From: a virus
Taxonomy: Duplodnaviria > Heunggongvirae > Uroviricota > Caudoviricetes
Strand: one strand, 5' to 3'
IMG/VR virus record: IMGVR_UViG_2703718819_000006
DNA length: 64,000 nt
Shown: positions 4,497 to 63,900 of the stretch, one piece after another
How positions within the stretch are numbered: the first letter of the stretch is position 1
Layout of the letters: every line of letters begins with the position of its first letter
Program-made: the position numbers and the translations under genes
The notes under the pieces: generated by a model
The model's input: the letters and a program-made list of their open reading frames with translations, nothing else
Told to the model about the DNA's origin: nothing
Database searches by the model: none

Positions 4497-4517
4497 GCGT
4501 TTAAACAAGTTGTTATC
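4497..4517. promoter_or_regulatory. AACAAnTTGTT palindrome upstream of nrdB
   Basis: Minus-strand GATAACAACTTGTTTAAAC about 30 nt upstream of the nrdB ATG; similar sites at 18315-18332, 44135-44151, 47067-47084. Confidence 0.3.
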
Positions 4518-4577
4518 TTATGTGTTTAAACAAGGCTTACAAATCAAAGAGAAGGTGGGGATATCCCCCACCATATG

Positions 4578-16216: not shown

Positions 16217-16277
16217 GTTTACTTCTCCTTATAAATAGGAAAATAATCACCTTTGAAAAAATAAAGCAAAGATATAT

Positions 16278-16667
16278 TCACTCCGATACAAGACGTTTAT
16301 ATGCTTCGATGTCTCGACGTGCTTCACCGAGTTTTCTTCTTAGGTCCATATTTTCTGATTCAAGTTTTTCAATGTTTTTTTGGTATCGGCCACGATGTTC
16401 TTCCCAGGCATCCTGATATGCCTTCATATATGTCGTATTAGCCTTTCTTTTTGCCTGACGAACCGCGTGGTGATTTTCTACAAACCAGTCAGGGTCGTTA
16501 AATGCTGCTCTTGCGCATTTATACCAATAATCGGTTGACTCTCTGTTTAACCAATGAATGGTGATAAATGGTAATCGAATAGACAGAATTTTTCGTTTGG
16601 AATCTCGCTCACCAAACATATGCCCTTTTTTTATCTTTAAACCGAACCCAGGTTGAATTAAAAGCAT
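16278..16667 (-). CDS. hypothetical protein with C-terminal coiled-coil
   Basis: 129-aa ORF (true start may be the internal MFGERD); C-terminal heptad-like region. Confidence 0.45.
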   Translation of the reverse strand: MLLIQPGFGLKIKKGHMFGERDSKRKILSIRLPFITIHWLNRESTDYWYKCARAAFNDPDWFVENHHAVRQAKRKANTTYMKAYQDAWEEHRGRYQKNIEKLESENMDLRRKLGEARRDIEAYKRLVSE

Positions 16668-16687
16668 TGTCAGTACCTCAGATGCAT

Positions 16688-17428
16688 TTATGGCAGTAAT
16701 TCTTTACCGCTTTCCATTTTGGTGATAGAGACAGTAGGATCATCGTTAATGCATGATTCTGTGCCTAATGCTGCTAACCCTTTACGCATAACCGTGCCCG
16801 CAACATACGCCTCAATCTCCGCCTTTCCAGATGAGACAATTTCATCCATTTGTTCCTGCATTAATTCGGTAGCAAAGCACAGATTTTCAGGAAGGTTAGC
16901 TACAGCAGATGCTAGTTTTCTATATAGTTCTTCAAGGTCACGTTTTCCAGCTCTTCCTTTTTTCACAAGTTCACCTAGCTCTGAAACTTGCTGATTAAGT
17001 CGATCAATCTCACTATTCGTAGCGGCCTTTATTTGATCGTTGAATTTTTGCCGAATACTTTTTTGCTCGGCAATATCATGAACTCTAATTGAGTCTCCAA
17101 TGGTTTTATATGAAATAGTGCATGGCACACCTTCGCCCACTCCAAAACTGCTAACCATAGCAGCCCATTGTGCCTGGCTAAGTCTAATTTCAACTAAAGG
17201 CCGTCTATTGCAACTTCTTTGTGGGCGGGTTCGTTCATTGTCTAAGGACAGTTCCGCCTCGTAAACGCCTATTTCAATATAGTCTCTATGTTCCAGTTCT
17301 GAATCAAATAGGCGAATGCCAGTTGTGCTAACACGGCTTGTTTTCACAAGACCGAACGCTGGATGTGTTTGAATTTTTTCCCCATGTTTATTAAGGGTCG
17401 TTTTTGGTTCTTCAATTTTTCTTTTCAC
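16688..17428 (-). CDS. hypothetical protein
   Basis: 246-aa ORF; no motif assigned. Confidence 0.5.
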   Translation of the reverse strand: MKRKIEEPKTTLNKHGEKIQTHPAFGLVKTSRVSTTGIRLFDSELEHRDYIEIGVYEAELSLDNERTRPQRSCNRRPLVEIRLSQAQWAAMVSSFGVGEGVPCTISYKTIGDSIRVHDIAEQKSIRQKFNDQIKAATNSEIDRLNQQVSELGELVKKGRAGKRDLEELYRKLASAVANLPENLCFATELMQEQMDEIVSSGKAEIEAYVAGTVMRKGLAALGTESCINDDPTVSITKMESGKELLP

Positions 17429-17474
17429 CTTATTAACCTCTATGCTTCATGCGTAAAGCTAAATGACAATTTTT

Positions 17475-18299
17475 TTAATATCCGGCGTATTCGTATTCTT
17501 CATTTAGACCGTATTCTTGTGGAGTGATACCAGGACAACATAACTCAAAGGCGAACTTGCGCCATTTGATTTTTTCTTCTGACGATTGTTTGTTATTCGC
17601 CGGTGCAATGTAGTCATATTCCCATTTGCCGTTGCGAAGTAAAATGAATCCGCAGTTATTGCCGAAGTCTTCGTCTGCATAACGTATTACAAACTCAAGG
17701 TGCGGGAACTTTCTAGCCATCGCTTGATAAATTGGTTTTGGCATAGACCAGGCTGTTTCAAAGCGAATCACCAACTCACCACCAGTTGCGGCATGTCTTG
17801 CAAGACGTTTTTTATAGATTCGTTTTGCATATGCTCGAACGTGTGTATGGCGGAAATTATGGCCGTACTTAATACGTGTAGGGATACGTTTTACGGGCAT
17901 TTCGATGTTGTAGGCATTCCATTTTGTTCCCCAATTAGCTCGCGACCAGTCAAACCATGAGTAATAGCCATAGCGACGATAATTCTCAAGCCGCATAAGA
18001 GCCTGCTCTTTGATTTTGCGAATTTCCTTGCGTGTCATTCCTGATTCACGCATAGCTAATTCGATCTGTTCTGGAGTCTTTAATTCACCGAACATGTGGT
18101 CGTAAACTGTTTCGCCCGCCATTGCAGAGGCCATGCGCCTGATATGATTGTTTTCTTCCATTTCTATACTTTTCGGACGTCTGCAAATGGTATTAAAGTC
18201 AATTAGACCTTTTTTGTTAGTTATGGCACGTATGAAATCTAAGCGTTGTTTATTTGTACCACCTATGACTCGGATTTCGTTTGTAATGTGGTTGGGCAT
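17475..18299 (-). CDS. hypothetical protein (Trp/Tyr-rich motif YSWFDWSRANWGTKWNAYN)
   Basis: 274-aa ORF; preceded by an AACAATTTGTT palindrome 20-40 bp upstream. Confidence 0.5.
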   Translation of the reverse strand: MPNHITNEIRVIGGTNKQRLDFIRAITNKKGLIDFNTICRRPKSIEMEENNHIRRMASAMAGETVYDHMFGELKTPEQIELAMRESGMTRKEIRKIKEQALMRLENYRRYGYYSWFDWSRANWGTKWNAYNIEMPVKRIPTRIKYGHNFRHTHVRAYAKRIYKKRLARHAATGGELVIRFETAWSMPKPIYQAMARKFPHLEFVIRYADEDFGNNCGFILLRNGKWEYDYIAPANNKQSSEEKIKWRKFAFELCCPGITPQEYGLNEEYEYAGY

Positions 18300-18350
18300 A
18301 ATTAACTTAACCTTTTAACAAATTGTTTTCTTGTGTGTGATAATAACGAG

Positions 18351-18376
18351 AATAAAACGGCGTCCAACTGGACGCC
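18351..18376 (-). terminator. rho-independent terminator after SPFH gene
   Basis: Stem GGCGTCC/GGACGCC with AACT loop, followed on the minus strand by GTTTTATT. Confidence 0.6.
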
Positions 18377-19521: not shown

Positions 19522-21861
19522 TTACTCTTCTACTGACTCGGTGGGATTGTCTTTTGATCTCCGGTCGTCGATTGCCTGTAAAGCCGCAATGATTTCAGCT
19601 AGTGGCTTCTCCCGATACATCTCGACGATCTGTGATTTGGTGTATTTCTTGTCACCAATTTCTACTCGACCGCTGGCGTTCTTTGGCAGGTATCCTTCTT
19701 CCAGCATGTACTCGACGAGCGACTCGATAACGTCGAGGCCACGAGTAGGATCGAAGTAGAATTTCCAGGTGCATTTGCCATACGGTGGTGCAACTTTGTT
19801 TTTGATGCACTCTGCGCCTACGTCCTGGCCGATCTTCTCTTTCCCATCCTTCATCACCGATGCACCGAGACGGATGCGCACAGAAGCGTAAAACTTCGGT
19901 GAATCGCCGCCTGGAGACGTAGTAGGGTCGCCAAACATTACACCGATTTTTGTGCGAACCTGATTCAAGAAGATGATGCAGGCGTTGTATTTGCGTGCCC
20001 ACAAAGCCAGAGTAGGGAAGTTCGCACTCGTCGCACGAGCCAGCGCCGTATTGTCGTTCATGTTTAGCTGATCTTTGTCTTTGGCAGTGCCTTCAGCCAT
20101 CTTTTCGAACTTCTCGGCTTTGGAGTTCGGAACCATAGACGCAAGTGAGTCAGCCACGATACAGATAGGTGCTGATTCAGGAATAAGCTCTTCATCACGT
20201 ACCAATTTAAGAATTGTGCCGATCAACTCTACAGAGTCTTCGAAGGTATCAGGCTGCTTGTATACCCACTGACCGTCATCCTCATCTGCATTCAAACCAT
20301 TGGCTACAGCCAGGCCAACGTCAAAACTGTTTTCATGATCGAGGAATACCGCCAGACCATCTTGTTTTTGAGCGGAGATCATCGCTGCTGTTGCAAGGAA
20401 TGTGTTGTGGCTGATAATCCCGTTAGACCAGAAAGAGTGTGTTTCCGGCATCGCTACGTCGAACGTTGGTGCTTCACCTTCCTCAATAGCCACGACTTCG
20501 TCGTAGAACAAGTTAGAGCCAATTACCGCTGCCAGTTGTGCAAACAGATGCTCGTTAAAACGATTCTTTCTGCCAATGAAGGAGACATAGATTTCTCGCA
20601 GTTTGTCTATTCCGACACGATCGCCGCGGCCAATAACGTGGTCTACCAGAGCGTAGTCTTCACGGGTGGTCTTGGTGAGCGACTCGTAGAGTGATTTCAC
20701 TAAGCCGCTGATGTGCGGAACATAGCCTGAGTAAGTGCGGTCAAAACCAATGTCCCGTTTGGTTGCCACTGATAAACGTGCCGGAGATTCGAAACCAATC
20801 GTTGACAGAAAAAGGTCGTAATTAGAGCCACTGAATGACAGCCGGTAATATGTATTTTCATAACCCGCGACGTGTTTTTCAGAGATAGTTGACGTAATCC
20901 CCAGATTCAGGAGCATGAGGCGAATTTGCTGTAGCAGCAGCCCACTCGCGCTCACAACCTCAATGCAGCGACCATCATTGACGTGGCATTCCAGCTCAAA
21001 GTAGCCGCGAAGGAATGCAATTTGAGCCTCGCTATTGGCGCGACGCACACTCAACGGAACCTGCTTGCCAGCAGCTTTCTCATACTCCAGACCATATTCT
21101 TTAAAAAGCAGCGAACGCACCTCTTTGCTAAACAGCACATGGTCTTCCGAGCCGTTATGTTTTCTCGTAACTGGCATCTTGTCTGATACCAGCGAAATGA
21201 GGCGGTAGTACTCATCCTTGATGAAAGGATCTGTGTTAGAAAAATTCACTGAATTTTCAGAGGCCACGTATCCGTCAGCAATTAAATAGCCCATCAGTTT
21301 TGCGATATTGGCATCCAGGTGCTGATCGCCGAATTGATGTGTGCCAACCATTGAAGGAATCGTGTCGCCTACACTGATTTTTTCAGCATGTCGCCAGACG
21401 ACATTACCTAAGTCGTCAACCACACGGATTGGGTGACGGAACGTAGCCTCGATATAACCGCCTGATGCCAGCTTAATACGCTTGAATTTGCGACGGTTGT
21501 TCCATGTCAGGTGTGAGGTCTTCTCTATCACGCCATTTTCATTGATGAGTCCAACGTTATGCTCTACATCGCGAGTAGTGCATGTCGCTTTGTACCCTTC
21601 AATCTCAAACAACTCTTTCACTGTTACCATTCCACGCTCCGTCAGCAGCATGGTGTCTGCGGTAACACATTTCCCCGCGCTTGGAGGACCGAATACTTCT
21701 ACGATACGACCACATGGGAAACCGCCATCGTAACGACCGGAAATAGCTTTGTTTAACGGAGGAAAGCCTGTGTCAATCCAATGAGTTACTTTCTGAATTT
21801 CGTCGTTGCTACCGATTTTCTTTTTCAGAGCAAGTGCCAGTGCGGATTTTCCTTTTGCCAT
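19522..21861 (-). CDS. recA: RecA/UvsX-family recombinase interrupted by an intein
   Basis: 779 aa. Exteins (about 357 aa) carry GRIVEVFGPPSAGK|T and IIFLNQVRTKIGVMFGDPTTSPGGDSPKFYASVRIRL, closely paralleling E. coli RecA as recalled. Confidence 0.85.
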   Translation of the reverse strand: MAKGKSALALALKKKIGSNDEIQKVTHWIDTGFPPLNKAISGRYDGGFPCGRIVEVFGPPSAGKCVTADTMLLTERGMVTVKELFEIEGYKATCTTRDVEHNVGLINENGVIEKTSHLTWNNRRKFKRIKLASGGYIEATFRHPIRVVDDLGNVVWRHAEKISVGDTIPSMVGTHQFGDQHLDANIAKLMGYLIADGYVASENSVNFSNTDPFIKDEYYRLISLVSDKMPVTRKHNGSEDHVLFSKEVRSLLFKEYGLEYEKAAGKQVPLSVRRANSEAQIAFLRGYFELECHVNDGRCIEVVSASGLLLQQIRLMLLNLGITSTISEKHVAGYENTYYRLSFSGSNYDLFLSTIGFESPARLSVATKRDIGFDRTYSGYVPHISGLVKSLYESLTKTTREDYALVDHVIGRGDRVGIDKLREIYVSFIGRKNRFNEHLFAQLAAVIGSNLFYDEVVAIEEGEAPTFDVAMPETHSFWSNGIISHNTFLATAAMISAQKQDGLAVFLDHENSFDVGLAVANGLNADEDDGQWVYKQPDTFEDSVELIGTILKLVRDEELIPESAPICIVADSLASMVPNSKAEKFEKMAEGTAKDKDQLNMNDNTALARATSANFPTLALWARKYNACIIFLNQVRTKIGVMFGDPTTSPGGDSPKFYASVRIRLGASVMKDGKEKIGQDVGAECIKNKVAPPYGKCTWKFYFDPTRGLDVIESLVEYMLEEGYLPKNASGRVEIGDKKYTKSQIVEMYREKPLAEIIAALQAIDDRRSKDNPTESVEE
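20404..21669 (-). mobile_element. intein (about 422 aa) with LAGLIDADG homing-endonuclease domain, inserted in the RecA P-loop
   Basis: Starts with Cys right after GPPSAGK (CVTADTMLL...) and ends ...GIISHN followed by Thr (the extein T of GKT); internal LMGYLIADGY and FLRGYFELEC motifs. Confidence 0.75.
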
Positions 21862-31976: not shown

Positions 31977-32074
31977 GGCTAATCCTTTGTTATGAAAACA
32001 AATTATTTACTAGTGTGTTTAATGTAGCACTGCGCGAACAGGGAACTAAGCCATTCGCGCAGGGAGAAGAGGGG

Positions 32075-32287
32075 TTAACAGATTCTGACGGCTAAAGACC
32101 CGGAGCCGATATTGAGAAGCGTGAAGCGTTTGTTGTTAAGTTCGAATATAAAGCCAGTTGTGTCATTCACACCAATCTGAATCTGCTCATTCGGTAGATC
32201 GGTGAGGATGTCAGCTACACACTCATCAGCTAATTTCTGTACGTGTCCGATCTCAAGAGCGATTAGGCTGGAAATAGTGGTGTTCAT
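32075..32287 (-). CDS. hypothetical protein
   Basis: 70-aa ORF, divergent from the XRE-like gene. Confidence 0.35.
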   Translation of the reverse strand: MNTTISSLIALEIGHVQKLADECVADILTDLPNEQIQIGVNDTTGFIFELNNKRFTLLNIGSGSLAVRIC

Positions 32288-32538
32288 TCAATCAATCCAT
32301 TCTAACTTATACTATGGTAAGGAATACTACTAAAATTTATATCAATACTGAATACATTCATATCATATGCAAGTTAATTTTCTTACCTGTTTTGGGCTAA
32401 TTTTTCTCCGTGCAATGGCCTTTAACCGGTCTTTTAAGTGCCTATCGAAAAAAATGATAATAGCTTTACAACCCTAACCTTTGATGTAATATCGGTAAGC
32501 ACTTACCAGAGAGAATTGAACGCGCAAAGGTTGTAACC

Positions 32539-32925
32539 ATGTCTGATAACAAGATTGAATTTATAGAAAGTCGCTATGCTGCTTTTATCGCAGGGCTGAT
32601 TGAATCCTCACCTATGAGTCAGGCCCAAATAGCCAGACTTATTGGTTATAAAAATGCCAACAACCTTTCTTTAATTAAAAGTGGCAAAATTCCTTTGCCT
32701 ATCGATAAGGTTCGTCCGTTGGCGCTGGCGCTGGGTATTGAGCCAAGTCGTCTTATGATGATGGTGCTGGAAGAACGCCAACCTGAACTCGCAGCATTTT
32801 TATACAAAGAAGGCACCGCTCCTCTTAACGAGGACGAAAAACAGGTTCTTGCTGCATATAACGAGCGATTCGGTAAAGAGAAAGGCGCATCACAAAAGGT
32901 TGTTGAGGCTATAAAGTCTCTATGA
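32539..32925 (+). CDS. XRE-family helix-turn-helix transcriptional regulator
   Basis: 128-aa plus-strand ORF; MSQAQIARLIGYKNANNLSLIKSGK resembles an HTH_XRE helix-turn-helix. Confidence 0.6.
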   Translation: MSDNKIEFIESRYAAFIAGLIESSPMSQAQIARLIGYKNANNLSLIKSGKIPLPIDKVRPLALALGIEPSRLMMMVLEERQPELAAFLYKEGTAPLNEDEKQVLAAYNERFGKEKGASQKVVEAIKSL

Positions 32926-34023: not shown

Positions 34024-34182
34024 ATGACAATCACCGAGTTACGCCGATGCACTGTATAAGTAAACAGTATATTAGGCATAGATTCTTATAGGATCAAGAG
34101 TCAAAGTAACTCATTTTTAGTAATGATTCCATACATAGTAGGTATGGAATCATTTTAGGTCTAAAATTTAAATCTGTAATAT

Positions 34183-34368
34183 CTATAGAGAGGAATTGCA
34201 CGAAAACCGATAACCCTTTATAGCGAGGATTATTGGTTTATTTTTGTTATGGCGTCGTTGTTCCGCCGGGATTATCAAGTTCGATTTTGAGATTTTGATC
34301 AGAGCGTTGGCCCTGTGGGACACTGAAGCTATTACTTTTGGATCAGGAGGCGTGAAACTTTTCTGCAA
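34183..34368 (-). CDS. possible small protein
   Basis: 61-aa ORF overlapping the end of 34343..34759; weak. Confidence 0.2.
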   Translation of the reverse strand: MQKSFTPPDPKVIASVSHRANALIKISKSNLIIPAEQRRHNKNKPIILAIKGYRFSCNSSL

Positions 34369-34759
34369 CGTCTGAAAAAAACTTTAGCAACCTAGTATCT
34401 CTAGCAGACATGCGATCGTGAGCTGGAGTGACTAAACCCATCAGCAAATAACGGCCGCTCTCCCACATATGCTCGGTATAGATGAGATAGTGATCTGAGG
34501 TTCGATTGTAGTTTTCTTGCCTTGCAGTCCAAGTTAACTGGTAATGCAAATTTACATGAATATGTTGGACGTTAGCGTCAACGGCAAACGGAGGAAAGTC
34601 GAATGGCGCATCCCTACCGAGAAGGTTGGACGGCTTACCCGTGGATTTGTAGGTAATGAACTCAGTTTTGAGCTGACTTTCCAGATCAGGATAAACGACA
34701 AACGTGGGTTGAAAAAAATCAACCCACGTATCTTGACTGTATTCAGCCGTCAATGCCAT
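34343..34759 (-). CDS. hypothetical protein
   Basis: 138-aa ORF, start overlapped by the upstream gene (10 nt). Confidence 0.5.
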   Translation of the reverse strand: MALTAEYSQDTWVDFFQPTFVVYPDLESQLKTEFITYKSTGKPSNLLGRDAPFDFPPFAVDANVQHIHVNLHYQLTWTARQENYNRTSDHYLIYTEHMWESGRYLLMGLVTPAHDRMSARDTRLLKFFSDVAEKFHAS

Positions 34760-35298
34760 TTAGCCGCAGCCTTGTTGCCAGTCATCAATAGATGGTTCAT
34801 GGCAGAAAGGTTCACGCCAGACTCACGCACACAAGAGGTGCGAGTAATCTGATCAATCAGATTTAGATAATTTTTGGCGGCAATACTGACCATTTTAATA
34901 GCTTTAAAGAAGGCAAACTCTACAGCGTTTTTGTCGTAAGACAAAATGACGTCTTTTTCAGGTAACATCAAAACGAAAGATTCTGCGATACCGGCTACAT
35001 GAATAGTTTGATTCTTAATTTCTTCCGCTACATTGATAGCAGCAAAGAAGTCAGTATCAGCATAACGAGCAAGTTCAGCGCGGCTTGCGCGAAGTTCTGT
35101 CGCTAGCTCATTAAGGGCTGCTGTAAGATCACTGATGTCGGTTTTATTGACTCTAGCGCCCATCTCATAAACCCGCTCTACAATAGTAGGCTGACACGCA
35201 ACCGCTTTTGGTTGCGGCTGGATACTGGCAAGAACCAGTGCCACTGCTGCCTGTAAATGCTGGATTTTAAATTTCACGATAGACTCCATTGTCGTCAT
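34750..35298 (-). CDS. hypothetical protein
   Basis: 182-aa ORF, first gene of a two-gene overlapping pair. Confidence 0.5.
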   Translation of the reverse strand: MTTMESIVKFKIQHLQAAVALVLASIQPQPKAVACQPTIVERVYEMGARVNKTDISDLTAALNELATELRASRAELARYADTDFFAAINVAEEIKNQTIHVAGIAESFVLMLPEKDVILSYDKNAVEFAFFKAIKMVSIAAKNYLNLIDQITRTSCVRESGVNLSAMNHLLMTGNKAAAKWH

Positions 35299-35390
35299 TT
35301 CTCGACGAGGCGTAGCATTCTACTACTGAATCTAACTATAAGCTAAAAAAACTTGGTTGCATATGCGACTTAGACTGCAAAACACGAAAT

Positions 35391-35421
35391 GAAAAATTAA
35401 AGGCCGCTTTCACGGCCCTTT
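35391..35421 (-). terminator. rho-independent terminator after glutaredoxin gene
   Basis: Stem AAAGGCCG/CGGCCCTTT, followed on the minus strand by a T-rich run. Confidence 0.55.
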
Positions 35422-35425
35422 AAAG

Positions 35426-35671
35426 TCAAAGTGTGCTGACATGTGCTGCCAGTTCTGTGTATCCGCCAATCGGTTGACCATCGATCAGCACTTGGGGGAT
35501 AGTCTCTACCGGTTTACCAACAATTTCACTTAGTTTTTTCTTGTCGATACCGGCAGTGGTGATGTCTATGTACTCATAATCACCGTAGCCATGTCCCTTT
35601 AGTTGCTTCGCCAGCTCGACCGCACGTTTGCAGTATGAGCAGTTATCTCGTCCGTAGATAGTGATCGTCAT
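35426..35671 (-). CDS. grxA: glutaredoxin
   Basis: 81 aa; MTITIYGRDNCSYCKRA (CxxC active site) and VETIPQVLIDGQPIGGYTELAAHV parallel E. coli Grx1 as recalled. Confidence 0.85.
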   Translation of the reverse strand: MTITIYGRDNCSYCKRAVELAKQLKGHGYGDYEYIDITTAGIDKKKLSEIVGKPVETIPQVLIDGQPIGGYTELAAHVSTL

Positions 35672-45970: not shown

Positions 45971-46008
45971 TGCATTGGCGCAATGTACGCGCCAATGCAT
46001 AATTTTTA
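45971..46008 (+). terminator. rho-independent terminator between convergent GIY-YIG and par genes
   Basis: 11-bp stem TGCATTGGCGC/GCGCCAATGCA with 7-nt loop, followed by TAATTTTT. Confidence 0.6.
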
Positions 46009-46365
46009 ACCTTTCTTCATCAACTCTCGTTTGATTTCATCGGTACGCATCGTGACATCGGCAGCGGTGATCGCCTCATTCAATTTCACGATGTCCTCGA
46101 TTTCCTGCGGTGACTTCTCTGCCAGATGGAAAATGGCTGCTCGAATCACGTCAGAACGAGTGAACTTCTCGAAGCGAGGGATGAACTTCATCATCTCCAG
46201 CAGTTCGAAGTATTCGTCCTCCAGTGACATTGTGCGGCTTTTAATTTTCTCTTTGCCACGAGTCGGGCGTCCCTGTGGTCTGACTGGTTGGCGCAAAGGA
46301 GTTGTGTTCTTAGCCGGTGCATCAGGCTCTTTGCGCTTTGCTAGGTCACCCATTTTCATGGACAT
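46006..46365 (-). CDS. small partition/centromere-binding protein (ParG/ParB-like)
   Basis: 119-aa ORF immediately downstream of and overlapping parA; basic Pro/Arg-rich N-terminus. Confidence 0.4.
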   Translation of the reverse strand: MSMKMGDLAKRKEPDAPAKNTTPLRQPVRPQGRPTRGKEKIKSRTMSLEDEYFELLEMMKFIPRFEKFTRSDVIRAAIFHLAEKSPQEIEDIVKLNEAITAADVTMRTDEIKRELMKKG

Positions 46366-47033: not shown

Positions 47034-47351
47034 TGGAGAGTTCCCTTTGCGTATATAATTATCGTCTGAAACAACTTGTTTTCTTATATGTGATATAGCC
47101 TAAATGCCTACGGCTGCGGTGTAAAGGTTAAATGGTAGGTTGTGATTAACAATTGGCAAACATAGCTTGTATTTGTCTGTTGAAAAAAGTAACAATGACC
47201 TCTATATTACAAGTACGGTGATATGCCGTACACAATTTGATAATGCACACGTAATGGGCTATAGCCTTTTAAAGTAATTTTTGAGTCGAAAACTCAGTTT
47301 GAACAGAGGAGATTGATGGCCTTCCTACATCACGGCCATCAGGAGGAATAC

Positions 47352-60948: not shown

Positions 60949-63900
60949 TTAGTTACGTTGAGTGTTTGGGTTGAGTGATCCGCCAGGGCGTTTCTCTTGA
61001 GCGATAGTCTCAAGCGCGATTGCTTTCATCCGTTGAGCGGCATTGTTCCATATGCTTTCTGTATCGCCGGATTCTGTCGTGCTACCGTCACTATGGACGT
61101 TGATCTCAATTGATACAGGAGAAAGAACATTTCCGCCTCCACTCATACCATCGGTACTGAGCGTTACAGGGATTGTTCGGCCATCAGGCAATGGAACATA
61201 CGCCTCATTCATAGAACCTTCCCCAAACAACGCTAATTGAGGCGAGTTAGCAATACCGCCTTTCTGGTATGCCCGAAGCGGGATCACGCCGTCTTTTCCG
61301 AATATTCCTCCATTTGCAAACTTCGGGATTGCAGGAATGCCTTTAGTTCCGTCAGCCACACTGCTGGTTGCGGTTTTAGCAGAGCTTGATGTCACGCTGT
61401 CGAAACCACCACCTGCCCATACTGAAACCAACCCAGATGCAACTGTCGCGCCGAAATTCAACCACTTATTACCAGAGCCGGAAGCATTAGCTCCAAGCAT
61501 TGCAAACGCGGCAGACAGAGCACCGGTAACAGAGCTGAGGTTCTGCATCGAGAAGATGGAATCCTTCACTGCTTTTGTCTCAGCATCTTTGGCTTCGGTG
61601 CTATCAAATAGCCCCGATACCCAGCTACCAATCGCATTTGTTGCTGTGCCAATTGCGCTGGTGGTCTGCTGTGTTGTTTGCCCCAATCCAGTTACCGAAC
61701 TGGACGTCTCCTTCGTGGCTTCTCCTACAGACTTGTCGCCGTTAACAGTGTTGCCCATTCGTACCCCTTGATTGGCAACGGCGGAAGCAACCCCGGTCAG
61801 CAAATTACCACTCTGTGAACTACCAGCAGCGGTGGTTCCCATCCCCAACATGTTCATTAGAGGCAGCGTGATCTGCGACTTCACGACCATATTGGTGATA
61901 TCTTTCAAAATGGACTGAGATAGGCTGGAGAAGCTCATCTTCCCGTTAATAACGAAATCAGTCAGGACATCAGTTAAGCCACTAAACAAATCAGTCCAGG
62001 TGCTTTCGATCTGCTCTGCCAGGTTTTCGTATTCCAGTGCCAACTTCTGCGTCGCAGTCCCCGTCTCTTTAATAAGCGCGGTATTGCCAGCAGCAATCAG
62101 TTGATTGATTTTCTTTGTATAAAGCGCCACAACTTTAGGATCAGACGCCTTATCACGAAGTTCTATCAACGCTTTGAGATTGCGGTTGTAGGTGTCTTCG
62201 AAATCAGCAACTTTATCTTCGCGAGACGGCGTATAGCCAGCACTAATAATGGAATCCGACTCCGGTGCCCAGGTGGAGATCATCTGCTCAACATTGCGGC
62301 GATTAAACATCTCGCGATATTCAGGTGTCGCATTTTTGAGGTCTTCAAGACGTTTTTTCGCCTTGTCGATCATCTCTTGAGTGATGAACTCGTTAGGAAC
62401 CGCATTAGCCAAATCTGTCAGCGATTTCGTTGTATCGCGAAGAGACTGATCAAACGATACCGTAGCCTTAGAGCTTTCACCCATTTGCCCCATAAGCTGA
62501 TCGGCTTTGTCCAGAGCCTTCTGGTATCCGGCTGCCAGTTTCTGTTGCGCTGCCTGTTCCTTCTTGGCCGCACGCTGCGAGGCGTTAGCTGATCGTTGGG
62601 CTGCTTTCTCGGCAGCTGCTGCATCCTGTTCACGAGCTTTAGTCAGTGCAGCAATGGCTGCGGCACGCTCTTCATCGCTCATTTTCTCCAGAGAGCTGGC
62701 GCTGGATGCTTTCTGCAAATTAAGCTGCGTCTTGAGTTGTTTAGGCCCAATAATCGGCTTACCTTCGAAGTCCATCATCGGAGTGCCGTCAGGCAAAGTA
62801 CGTTGATAAGTCGCAGAATCCATCTGGTTTCGCATATATTGCGCCAGCGCCTTCTGAGCAGCTTTATCAGTTGTACCTAACCCAAGAACAGTCCCCTGGT
62901 TTGACATTACGCCCTTACCAGTTTTGGCCGCGTTATCTCTCTCGAACTCTGCCTGAGTCAGCTCCTGAGCAACGGCTTCCAAATGCTCCTGATAACCACG
63001 AATACTGCCTTGCAGTTTCTGGATCTGCTCGGTATTTCCATCCTTTTTGGCTTTTTCAAGCTGATCATTAAGAGTCGCAATTTGCTTCTCGGTCGCATTC
63101 TTACGAGAAGAAAGTGAATCAACCAGTTTTTGCGCAGGCTCCAGATAGCTTTTGTTTACCGTTTCACGTAACGGTGCCAATAGCTTGTTCTTTTCGTCAT
63201 CTGAAAGTGAACCGTCATCATTGATTTTCTGGATCTTATCCAGAGCCTCTTGCCGGGCTTTCACGAATGTTGCCGCGAAAATCTGGTTTTCCGCTCGAAT
63301 TTTCTCAATCTGAGATTCGGCAGCCTCTTTAGCCAAACGCTTTGCTACAGCGCCGTCACCAAGAGCTATCGTGCCGGTTATCTTTTGATACTCCTCCTGA
63401 TTTTTTTTCAGGCGTGCTTCGATGTCAGCCTTCGACTCTTTGTGAGTAATAACACCGGCAGAGTTAGATACGTAATTAACACCCTCACCAGTTTTTAATG
63501 CTCGTTGATCAGCAAGAATCTGCTTTTCGAGCTTTTCTGCGCGGTCGGCCATTTGTGCACGTTTGGCCGCTGTCATCGCTTCTGGTATTTTCCTAATCTC
63601 GTCAACGACCTTTGAAGTTTCGCTGCGGAGCATGGTCATGTACGTGATTAGGCCAGCAACAGCTACAGTGGCAACTGTAAATGCTGCCCCTATAGGGTTT
63701 GCTGCAATGAACGCCGTTAATCCAGCAAAAGCGCCTTTAAGCCCCGTAATCGCCCCACGGATGGCGAAAATAAGAGAGGGGATCGGAGCCAGCCCCATAC
63801 GTGCCGCACGATTGAATCGAGTTACTGCTGTAGCGCCGAGGTTAAATGGAGTCTGTATGGCGGTCGCCATCGTGGCAAAGGTGCTAACCATCTGGCTCCC

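Follow-up and report, generated by a model that had tools for sequence, protein, structure and literature searches.

The 64-kb stretch of DNA analysed here (the window, 64,000 nucleotides) is an SSU5-like phage-plasmid, and upstream of several of its genes it carries the motif AGAAAACAAnTTGTTTA, a 17-bp quasi-palindrome in which two 7-bp arms flank one free base. The motif recurs at orthologous positions in related elements and is probably a dispersed operator, recognised as double-stranded DNA by a repressor. This is a genuine, conserved feature, and most likely an ordinary repressor operator on an unusually broad and invariant regulon of a widespread phage-plasmid family. In the searchable literature the motif is not printed, and we found there neither an operator described for the SSU5-like group nor a description of lysogeny control in these phage-plasmids.

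The window is 97-99% identical to CMS-2020a and to Escherichia phage Cyrano (OV696614), which is phage-plasmid pLF82 from E. coli LF82; with Salmonella phage SSU5 and Klebsiella phage-plasmids it shares about 77% identity. Nearly all of its genes are on the minus strand, and the motif is therefore written in the sense of the genes. Four strong copies and one weak copy are present, all of them in gene sense on the minus strand, and the genes 3' of them are nrdB, a 274-aa ORF whose product has a DUF1281_C/Api92-like domain, a DnaB-like helicase gene, a type Ib parA (222 aa) and a CobT/vWA gene. The initial annotation had already placed four strong copies and a weaker one before these same genes, and both the positions and the genes hold. 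The palindrome that it drew is real as well, but it was drawn too short: the conserved unit is longer and asymmetric and consists of AGAAAACAAnTTGTTTA together with its promoter-side flanks.

At nrdB the motif reads GATAACAACTTGTTTAAA (4500-4517, minus strand), with the operator AGATAACAACTTGTTTA at 4501-4517 centred on 4509 and overlapping the 3' end of the predicted -10 box; this copy is conserved in Cyrano and SSU5 and has three mismatches in the Klebsiella element pJN2-26. The copy of the 274-aa ORF is GAAAACAATTTGTTAAAA (18313-18330, minus strand; operator AGAAAACAATTTGTTAA at 18314-18330, centre 18322). At the helicase we find GAAAACAATTTGTTTAAA (44134-44151, minus strand) with the operator AGAAAACAATTTGTTTA at 44135-44151 and its centre at 44143, the top match in the window with 30 bits, and at parA GAAAACAAGTTGTTTCAG (47066-47083, minus strand; operator AGAAAACAAGTTGTTTC at 47067-47083, centre 47075). 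The weak copy before the CobT/vWA gene covers 31994-32011 on the minus strand (operator AGTAAATAATTTGTTTT at 31994-32010, centre 32002); its orthologue is a perfect palindrome in Yersinia pestis pFra and differs by one mismatch each in SSU5 and pJN2-26. The start codons follow the palindrome centre by 22-41 nt and the end of the motif by 13-32 nt.

That such matches arise by chance in AT-rich leader sequence, which the initial annotation had named as the outcome that would overturn it, has next to no likelihood. An AT-rich motif in AT-rich intergenic DNA does invite the suspicion, and unrelated AT-rich viral contigs contain single exact matches which look like chance. However, the core AACAANTTGTT occurs four times in the window where 0.13 occurrences are expected, a number reached in none of 100 shuffled sequences, and a position-weight matrix built from 26 oriented sites gives six strand-hits at a cut-off of at least 17 bits, compared to 0.08 in shuffles. 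These counts, together with the conservation of orthologous positions across genera, already refute chance. The matrix scan of the whole window revealed no sites beyond the known copies. Isolated half-sites near the palindromes are also more frequent than expected (13 versus 3.7), which in AT-rich DNA is too weak to serve as evidence.

A motif scan beyond the window, which had been called for at the outset, was done by counting sites with at most two mismatches to AAAACAAnTTGTTTT. In total 19 sites were found in Cyrano, 21 in SSU5, 15 in Klebsiella pJN2-26 and seven in Y. pestis pFra/pMT1, while divergent metagenomic relatives of about 110 kb contain many more copies. All multi-copy loci in the scan of viral contigs are SSU5-like or belong to these 110-kb relatives. 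The regulon proposed in the initial annotation thus exists and is larger than was seen there, the window holding about a quarter of its approximately 20 sites. The sites lie at terS (two copies), parA, the helicase, cobT, nrdB and a cluster of small early genes, and orthologous sites are kept while the flanking sequence diverges. In alignments of orthologous upstream regions (helicase, parA, nrdB), which take in elements with protein identity down to about 50%, the motif is the sole invariant block apart from the ribosome-binding site. The operator is the only such block in a five-genome footprint of the helicase upstream region, as is ACATAAGAAAACAnnTTGTTT upstream of parA in five elements.

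Y. pestis pFra (NZ_CP151628), which is close to SSU5, has no par module; its sites lie at 36714, 50848, 62960/63011, 63503 and 72394/72419, all SSU5-derived promoters retain an intact operator, and it also retains the FljA-like, the CYRAN_117-like and the CYRAN_45-like genes. The Moellerella plasmid NZ_CP093251, a distant SSU5-like phage-plasmid from the Morganellaceae whose cargo includes umuDC and a fimbrial operon, is free of the dispersed motif; before parA just half a site is present. The build of the promoter is kept there, with TGGCATAAT followed by the A-rich leader AAGAAAAACAA, but the right arm, and hence the palindrome, is missing.

The sites stand in a fixed register with predicted sigma-70 promoters, and all positions given relative to +1 are predictions from promoter elements. 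For nrdB, the 274-aa ORF and the CobT/vWA gene these elements were read from the sequence, as were the terminator-like hairpins mentioned here; the CobT/vWA box was also scored. The nrdB promoter (minus strand) would consist of the -35 element TTGTAA (4537-4542), a 16-nt spacer and the -10 element TAAGAT (4515-4520). The arrangement TTGnnn-16-TAAGAT is invariant in four genomes and its -10 overlaps the left flank of the site; just before this promoter-operator module a G+C hairpin of terminator type (4554-4572, minus strand) ends the nrdA transcript. For the 274-aa ORF a predicted -10 TATTAT (18340-18345, minus strand) ends 18 nt upstream of the centre, which puts the centre at about +12, and a terminator-like hairpin (18359-18376, minus strand) precedes the promoter. 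The predicted extended -10 of the CobT/vWA gene, TGCTACATT (32021-32029, minus strand), places the centre at about +13, with a terminator-like hairpin at 32030-32062 on the same strand. The predicted helicase promoter (44153-44180, minus strand) has TTGATC at 44175-44180, a 16-nt spacer and AATACT at 44153-44158, and the operator begins 2 nt after this -10. Its pattern TTGAtC/TTGAGC-16-AATACT/TAGTAT/TACGAT/CATAAT is conserved in five diverged elements. If transcription starts about 7 nt after these -10 boxes, the palindrome centre would be at -1 for nrdB and at about +4 for the helicase. A possible -10 of parA, TATAAG (47083-47088, minus strand), abuts the operator copy. Every copy in the window comes after a terminator-like hairpin, so that each forms a separate promoter-operator module.

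The early promoters have near-consensus extended -10 boxes (TGnGATAAT; TGCGATAAT, TGAGATAAT, TGGTATTAT). At 20 of 55 sites a strong -10, mostly TGnGATAAT, ends exactly 20-21 nt upstream of the palindrome centre, compared to about 0.5 per genome at random positions, and this spacing puts the centre near +14. It could in part reflect common descent of duplicated promoter cassettes and not constraint. A second arrangement is the asymmetric 17-mer in inverted orientation 26 nt upstream of a -10 box, with its centre at about -38; in some cases a leader copy accompanies it at a distance of 51 bp. We surveyed 97 sites in ten genomes or loci and found the +14 arrangement at 25 of them and the -38 arrangement at 35, of which 29 lack a leader copy. 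The suggestion of an operator overlapping the transcription start, made in the initial annotation, gains support from this fixed register with conserved -35 and -10 elements, from the inverted copies near -38 and from the silence of lysogens described below.

The leader of terS and the late operon (Cyrano record 41-135; SSU5 40-134), which is outside the window, has two operator copies 25 bp apart. It further contains a terminator-like hairpin (AGAGCGCATGGACGCGCTCT plus a T run) 3' of the operators and directly before the ribosome-binding site, which suggests that late-gene expression also needs antitermination.

RNA-seq of LF82 lysogens (PMC9928086, S1 table) gives a median of 9.8 for the Cyrano genes, and the first genes 3' of motif sites read 5.7-13 in the same table, among them terS (7.1), cobT (7.8), CYRAN_58 (5.7), nrdB (12.9) and the early genes (5.7-12.8). 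Above background are parA with 50 (its operon partners with 89 and 55), the helicase with 21 and CYRAN_111 with 25 (PMC9928086, S1 table). Most genes downstream of the motif are at background, which as a link between motif and expression is a correlation only. Since near-consensus extended -10 promoters are silent in the lysogen, we infer repression rather than a missing activator.

The silence would also fit promoters that need an absent activator. The motif could then bind a phage activator, or serve as a dedicated promoter element, for switching on the lytic genes, an arrangement we consider unlikely. Besides the silent genes themselves, the many sites at about -38, near the position of class II activators, and the weak -35 or -10 elements at the terS, helicase and parA promoters agree with it. 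However, centres at -1 to +14 are not activator positions, the many near-consensus extended -10 boxes (TGCGATAAT, TGGTATTAT) normally fire unaided, and there is no RNA polymerase or sigma factor among the annotated genes of the element. Nor do the sites match the layout of the Lpa-dependent late promoters of P1, in which a palindrome centred near -22 is followed by the -10. The -10 boxes lie here upstream of the site or 26 nt downstream of it, and because the start codons of the 274-aa ORF and the helicase follow the centre by 22-25 nt (25 nt at the helicase), there is no room for a -10, a start and a ribosome-binding site.

Whether the palindrome is read as a DNA duplex or as an RNA hairpin, the alternative offered in the initial annotation, can be judged from several observations. 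As RNA the palindrome folds with -0.7 kcal/mol, and none of the five window leaders folds better than its shuffles (z -1.45 to +1.7). Compensatory changes of the arms do not occur among the copies, the natural variants AAAACAAATTATTTA, AAAACAACATGTTTA and AAAACAAGTTGGTTA breaking pairs, and a search of the window against Rfam finds three tRNAs only and no family at the motif. Moreover, 29 of the 97 sites are inverted and lie only upstream of the promoter, and these can therefore not act through the downstream mRNA. Negligible folding, uncompensated arms, the missing Rfam family and the upstream-only copies favour recognition as duplex DNA, and a hairpin for translational control finds no support.

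A version in which a protein binds the leader RNA has to be weighed separately, because the element encodes a member of the FljA family. This protein, CYRAN_114, is full-length (PF03614, E 1e-80) and of the tandem-Hfq-fold/tandem-Sm type, and its gene, located outside the window, is core to the group (12 of 12 SSU5-group phage records and 835 plasmids). Yamamoto and Kutsukake reportedly found in 2006 that FljA binds fliC mRNA and that translation is blocked. This block is echoed in PMC2652032. By analogy, the FljA-family protein might bind the leader motif (AAGAAAACAAnUUGUUUAAGG), obstruct the ribosome-binding site beside it and make the mRNA less stable, in the way that Salmonella FljA acts on fliC mRNA. 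The likeness to FljA-fliC, and to T4 RegA, consists of an encoded family member, leader copies directly 5' of the ribosome-binding site and one protein for many mRNAs. All leader copies are co-oriented and abut the Shine-Dalgarno sequence, the A-rich arm coming first and the U-rich arm beside the ribosome-binding site, an orientation which binding as RNA would predict as well. In growing lysogens the FljA-like gene is expressed (log2 7-8 versus 3-4 for silent genes; PMC9928086, S1 table), and it is missing from Moellerella, the only SSU5-like relative without the motif.

Against this stand the 29 of 97 sites, about a third, that are inverted, upstream-only and outside the downstream transcript, and the predicted starts of nrdB and the helicase, which fall within or after the left arm. 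A single-strand binder also leaves unexplained the exact reverse-complement symmetry including the C/G positions, a palindromic symmetry that points to duplex DNA. The fliC leaders give no match, scoring -1.06 (Salmonella) and -8.8 (E. coli) compared to at least 13.7 bits for real sites, and 938 of 5000 shuffles (19%) score equally well. By eye the Salmonella fliC leader (AGCCCAATAACATCAAGTTGTAATTGATAAGGAAAAGATC, a primer in PMC3410353) resembles the site at 81284, but the matrix test finds no significant match. The phyletic co-absence is that of a single lineage. All homologues of the FljA-like protein and of the ParA partner lie in SSU5-like synteny, and only Moellerella and pFra are discordant. 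We regard it as doubtful that the conserved cluster of uvsW, a small protein and the fljA-like gene reads the motif through its FljA-family protein, whether in leader RNA or in promoter DNA that has melted; if it did, SSU5-like phage-plasmids might be the native home of FljA-type regulators, with Salmonella FljA as a domesticated offshoot and an FljA-type regulon of about 20 operons.

The copy at parA raises the question of partition proteins. ParA is a small type Ib ATPase without a DNA-binding domain, and autoregulation by its partner protein is therefore to be expected, as type Ib systems autoregulate through the partner. The partner (46006-46365, 119 aa) has a ParG-like layout by eye, with a conserved N-terminal tail, a basic linker and a strand-helix-helix pattern, its fold matches being insignificant. 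The motif could thus represent dispersed type Ib centromere/operator sites bound by this protein, coupling segregation with the silencing of phage promoters, and we give this little credence. In its favour nothing but the motif is conserved upstream of parA, only par among the motif operons shows steady expression in lysogens (50-89), and N15 carries four separate IR centromere sites (PMC7205306). Omega of pSM19035, ParG of TP228 and KorB of RK2 are global plasmid repressors that double as partition proteins. With them and with the N15 centromeres the system shares short repeated or palindromic sites distributed over several promoters within a replicon, including a site upstream of a type Ib parA, and the inverted 7-bp arms resemble the omega heptads. 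Unlike those of omega, ParG and KorB, the regulon here consists mostly of lytic phage genes and not of replication and maintenance genes.

The phyletic pattern also argues against the ParA partner as binder and sets the motif apart from the operators of partition-protein repressors. Moellerella has kept ParA and the partner, with the putative reading strand IKSRTxS unchanged, and nevertheless lacks the dispersed motif; pFra lacks the par module and has the motif at all surviving promoters, a test of low power because pFra is close to SSU5. Furthermore, a repeat array of the kind usual for type Ib centromeres is missing, and there is no clear route for the release of lytic promoters on induction.

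Returning to a repressor operator on duplex DNA, we ranked the candidate binders by expression, conservation and phyletic pattern. CYRAN_117 comes out on top, followed by the FljA-like protein and, further down, by the ParA partner and CYRAN_45. Most consistent with the data is the 92-aa protein of the CYRAN_117 type, which is encoded outside the window next to uvsW, in a cluster of uvsW, the small protein and the fljA-like gene, and is expressed at 114 in lysogens (PMC9928086, S1 table). It shows a strand-helix-helix pattern with a putative DNA-reading strand CQVxL[S/T], which all elements with the motif retain and which is changed in Moellerella, where the motif is missing. An hhalign comparison with classical ribbon-helix-helix repressors gives the expected register at a non-significant E of 0.26. 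No copy of the motif was found upstream of the candidate regulator genes, where it could be autoregulatory.

Other proteins were considered and judged unlikely. The homologue of CYRAN_45 (32539-32925, plus strand), annotated as 'putative repressor', forms with the homologue of CYRAN_46 (about 32075-32287, minus strand) a divergent CI/Cro-like pair adjoining the integrase. Comparing Cyrano with pJN2-26, the two proteins have just 56% and 46% identity, in contrast to the invariant motif; their own switch region lacks the motif and has another palindrome, GGTAAGTnCTTACC (GGTAAGnnCTTACC), and CYRAN_45 is also present, with a similar recognition helix, in the motif-less Moellerella. In the intergenic region of the switch (32288-32538) we find a perfect 14-bp palindrome, GGTAAGCACTTACC, at 32494-32507 together with GGTAAG/CTTACC half-sites. 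Within the window this palindrome occurs only here, and Klebsiella pJN2-26 has it too (40503-40516), whereas in SSU5 the entire CI/Cro-like switch block is absent. The pair is probably a local lysogeny switch distinct from the dispersed motif. CYRAN_43, whose expression in LF82 lysogens is the highest of all Cyrano genes (7084, about 720 times background; PMC9928086, S1 table), is absent from the element of the window and therefore accessory, and CYRAN_98 is UmuD-like and not a DNA binder.

In the mechanism which we propose, a small oligomeric repressor encoded by the phage-plasmid probably binds the 17-bp site, and this one protein would control about 20 dispersed promoters of the host sigma-70 type, namely those of the early small genes, the helicase, nrdB, cobT/vWA, the 274-aa ORF, terS with the late operon, and parA. 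It would block them by covering the -10 and the start site (nrdB, helicase, parA), by sitting at about +14 just below extended -10 promoters (TGnGATAAT), or from the inverted site at about -38, the last two modes sometimes acting together 51 bp apart. The lytic-cycle operons would in this way be held off while the element replicates as a plasmid.

Such a scheme has a known counterpart in P1, a plasmid-prophage of about 100 kb, where the C1 repressor acts at many dispersed operators, one of them preceding a DnaB-like helicase gene. The C1 operators are asymmetric, occur in both orientations and are sometimes paired, and the genes they control are silent in the lysogen. The present motif shares all of this: one site sequence at many lytic promoters including that of a DnaB-like helicase, lysogen silence, and an asymmetric site found in both orientations and sometimes in pairs. 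On the other hand, its sequence is unrelated to the P1 consensus, the site is near-palindromic, parA and the terS promoter belong to the regulon, and no C1-type repressor is among the annotated proteins of Cyrano, SSU5 and pJN2-26. Because both sequence and protein differ, the motif does not belong to the P1 C1 family and the likeness is one of scheme only. With lac O1 and the 17-bp operators of lambdoid phages, classical sites at which repression is steric over the -35, the -10 or +1 to +20, it has in common a symmetric 17-bp sequence that either covers the -10 and the start or is placed at about +11 to +14. Auxiliary sites at a distance of 51 bp, about five turns of the helix, are a further likeness and would make cooperative binding or looping possible. 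It differs from them in that the arms are one base apart and that the local CI-like repressor appears to use GGTAAGnnCTTACC.

SSU5-like phage-plasmids are common in Enterobacteriaceae. About 800 PLSDB plasmids have the module, including those of the S. Typhi pHCM2 type, the backbone is shared with Y. pestis pMT1/pFra, and members of the SSU5 group have been reported to carry antibiotic-resistance genes. The motif represents the cis side of a regulon comprising early, replication, nucleotide-metabolism, packaging and partition promoters, and it is therefore a direct handle for finding the repressor. It also allows silenced cargo genes to be predicted and induction to be engineered. There seem to be two tiers of control, a local CI/Cro-like switch with its own unique palindrome and a second, invariant operator common to several genera. 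An operator that is invariant across genera contrasts with the fast-diverging immunity specificities of lambdoid phages.

Some further features of these elements were noted. The spacer of an early promoter contains a perfect DnaA-box consensus TTATCCACA (gccTTATCCACActgcGATAAT) in SSU5 (about 93680-93700) and in pFra (about 62975-62990), and the corresponding spacer in Cyrano (about 97925) has one mismatch (TTATCTACA). This box may be a coincidence or a tie to the replication status of the host. Three segments of the window (16224-18306, 34154-35447 and 45084-46008) have no megablast match in Cyrano and are thus mosaic replacements. The first includes the 274-aa ORF and its operator copy, the second stands in place of CYRAN_43 and the third comes after the par operon. 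At 19522-21861 (minus strand) the window encodes a RecA/UvsX-like recombinase of 779 aa which contains an intein splicing domain and a LAGLIDADG homing endonuclease, the SSU5 orthologue having 358 aa and no insert. Three tRNA genes lie in tandem at 36975-37218 (minus strand), annotated in Cyrano as Asn, Thr and Ser.
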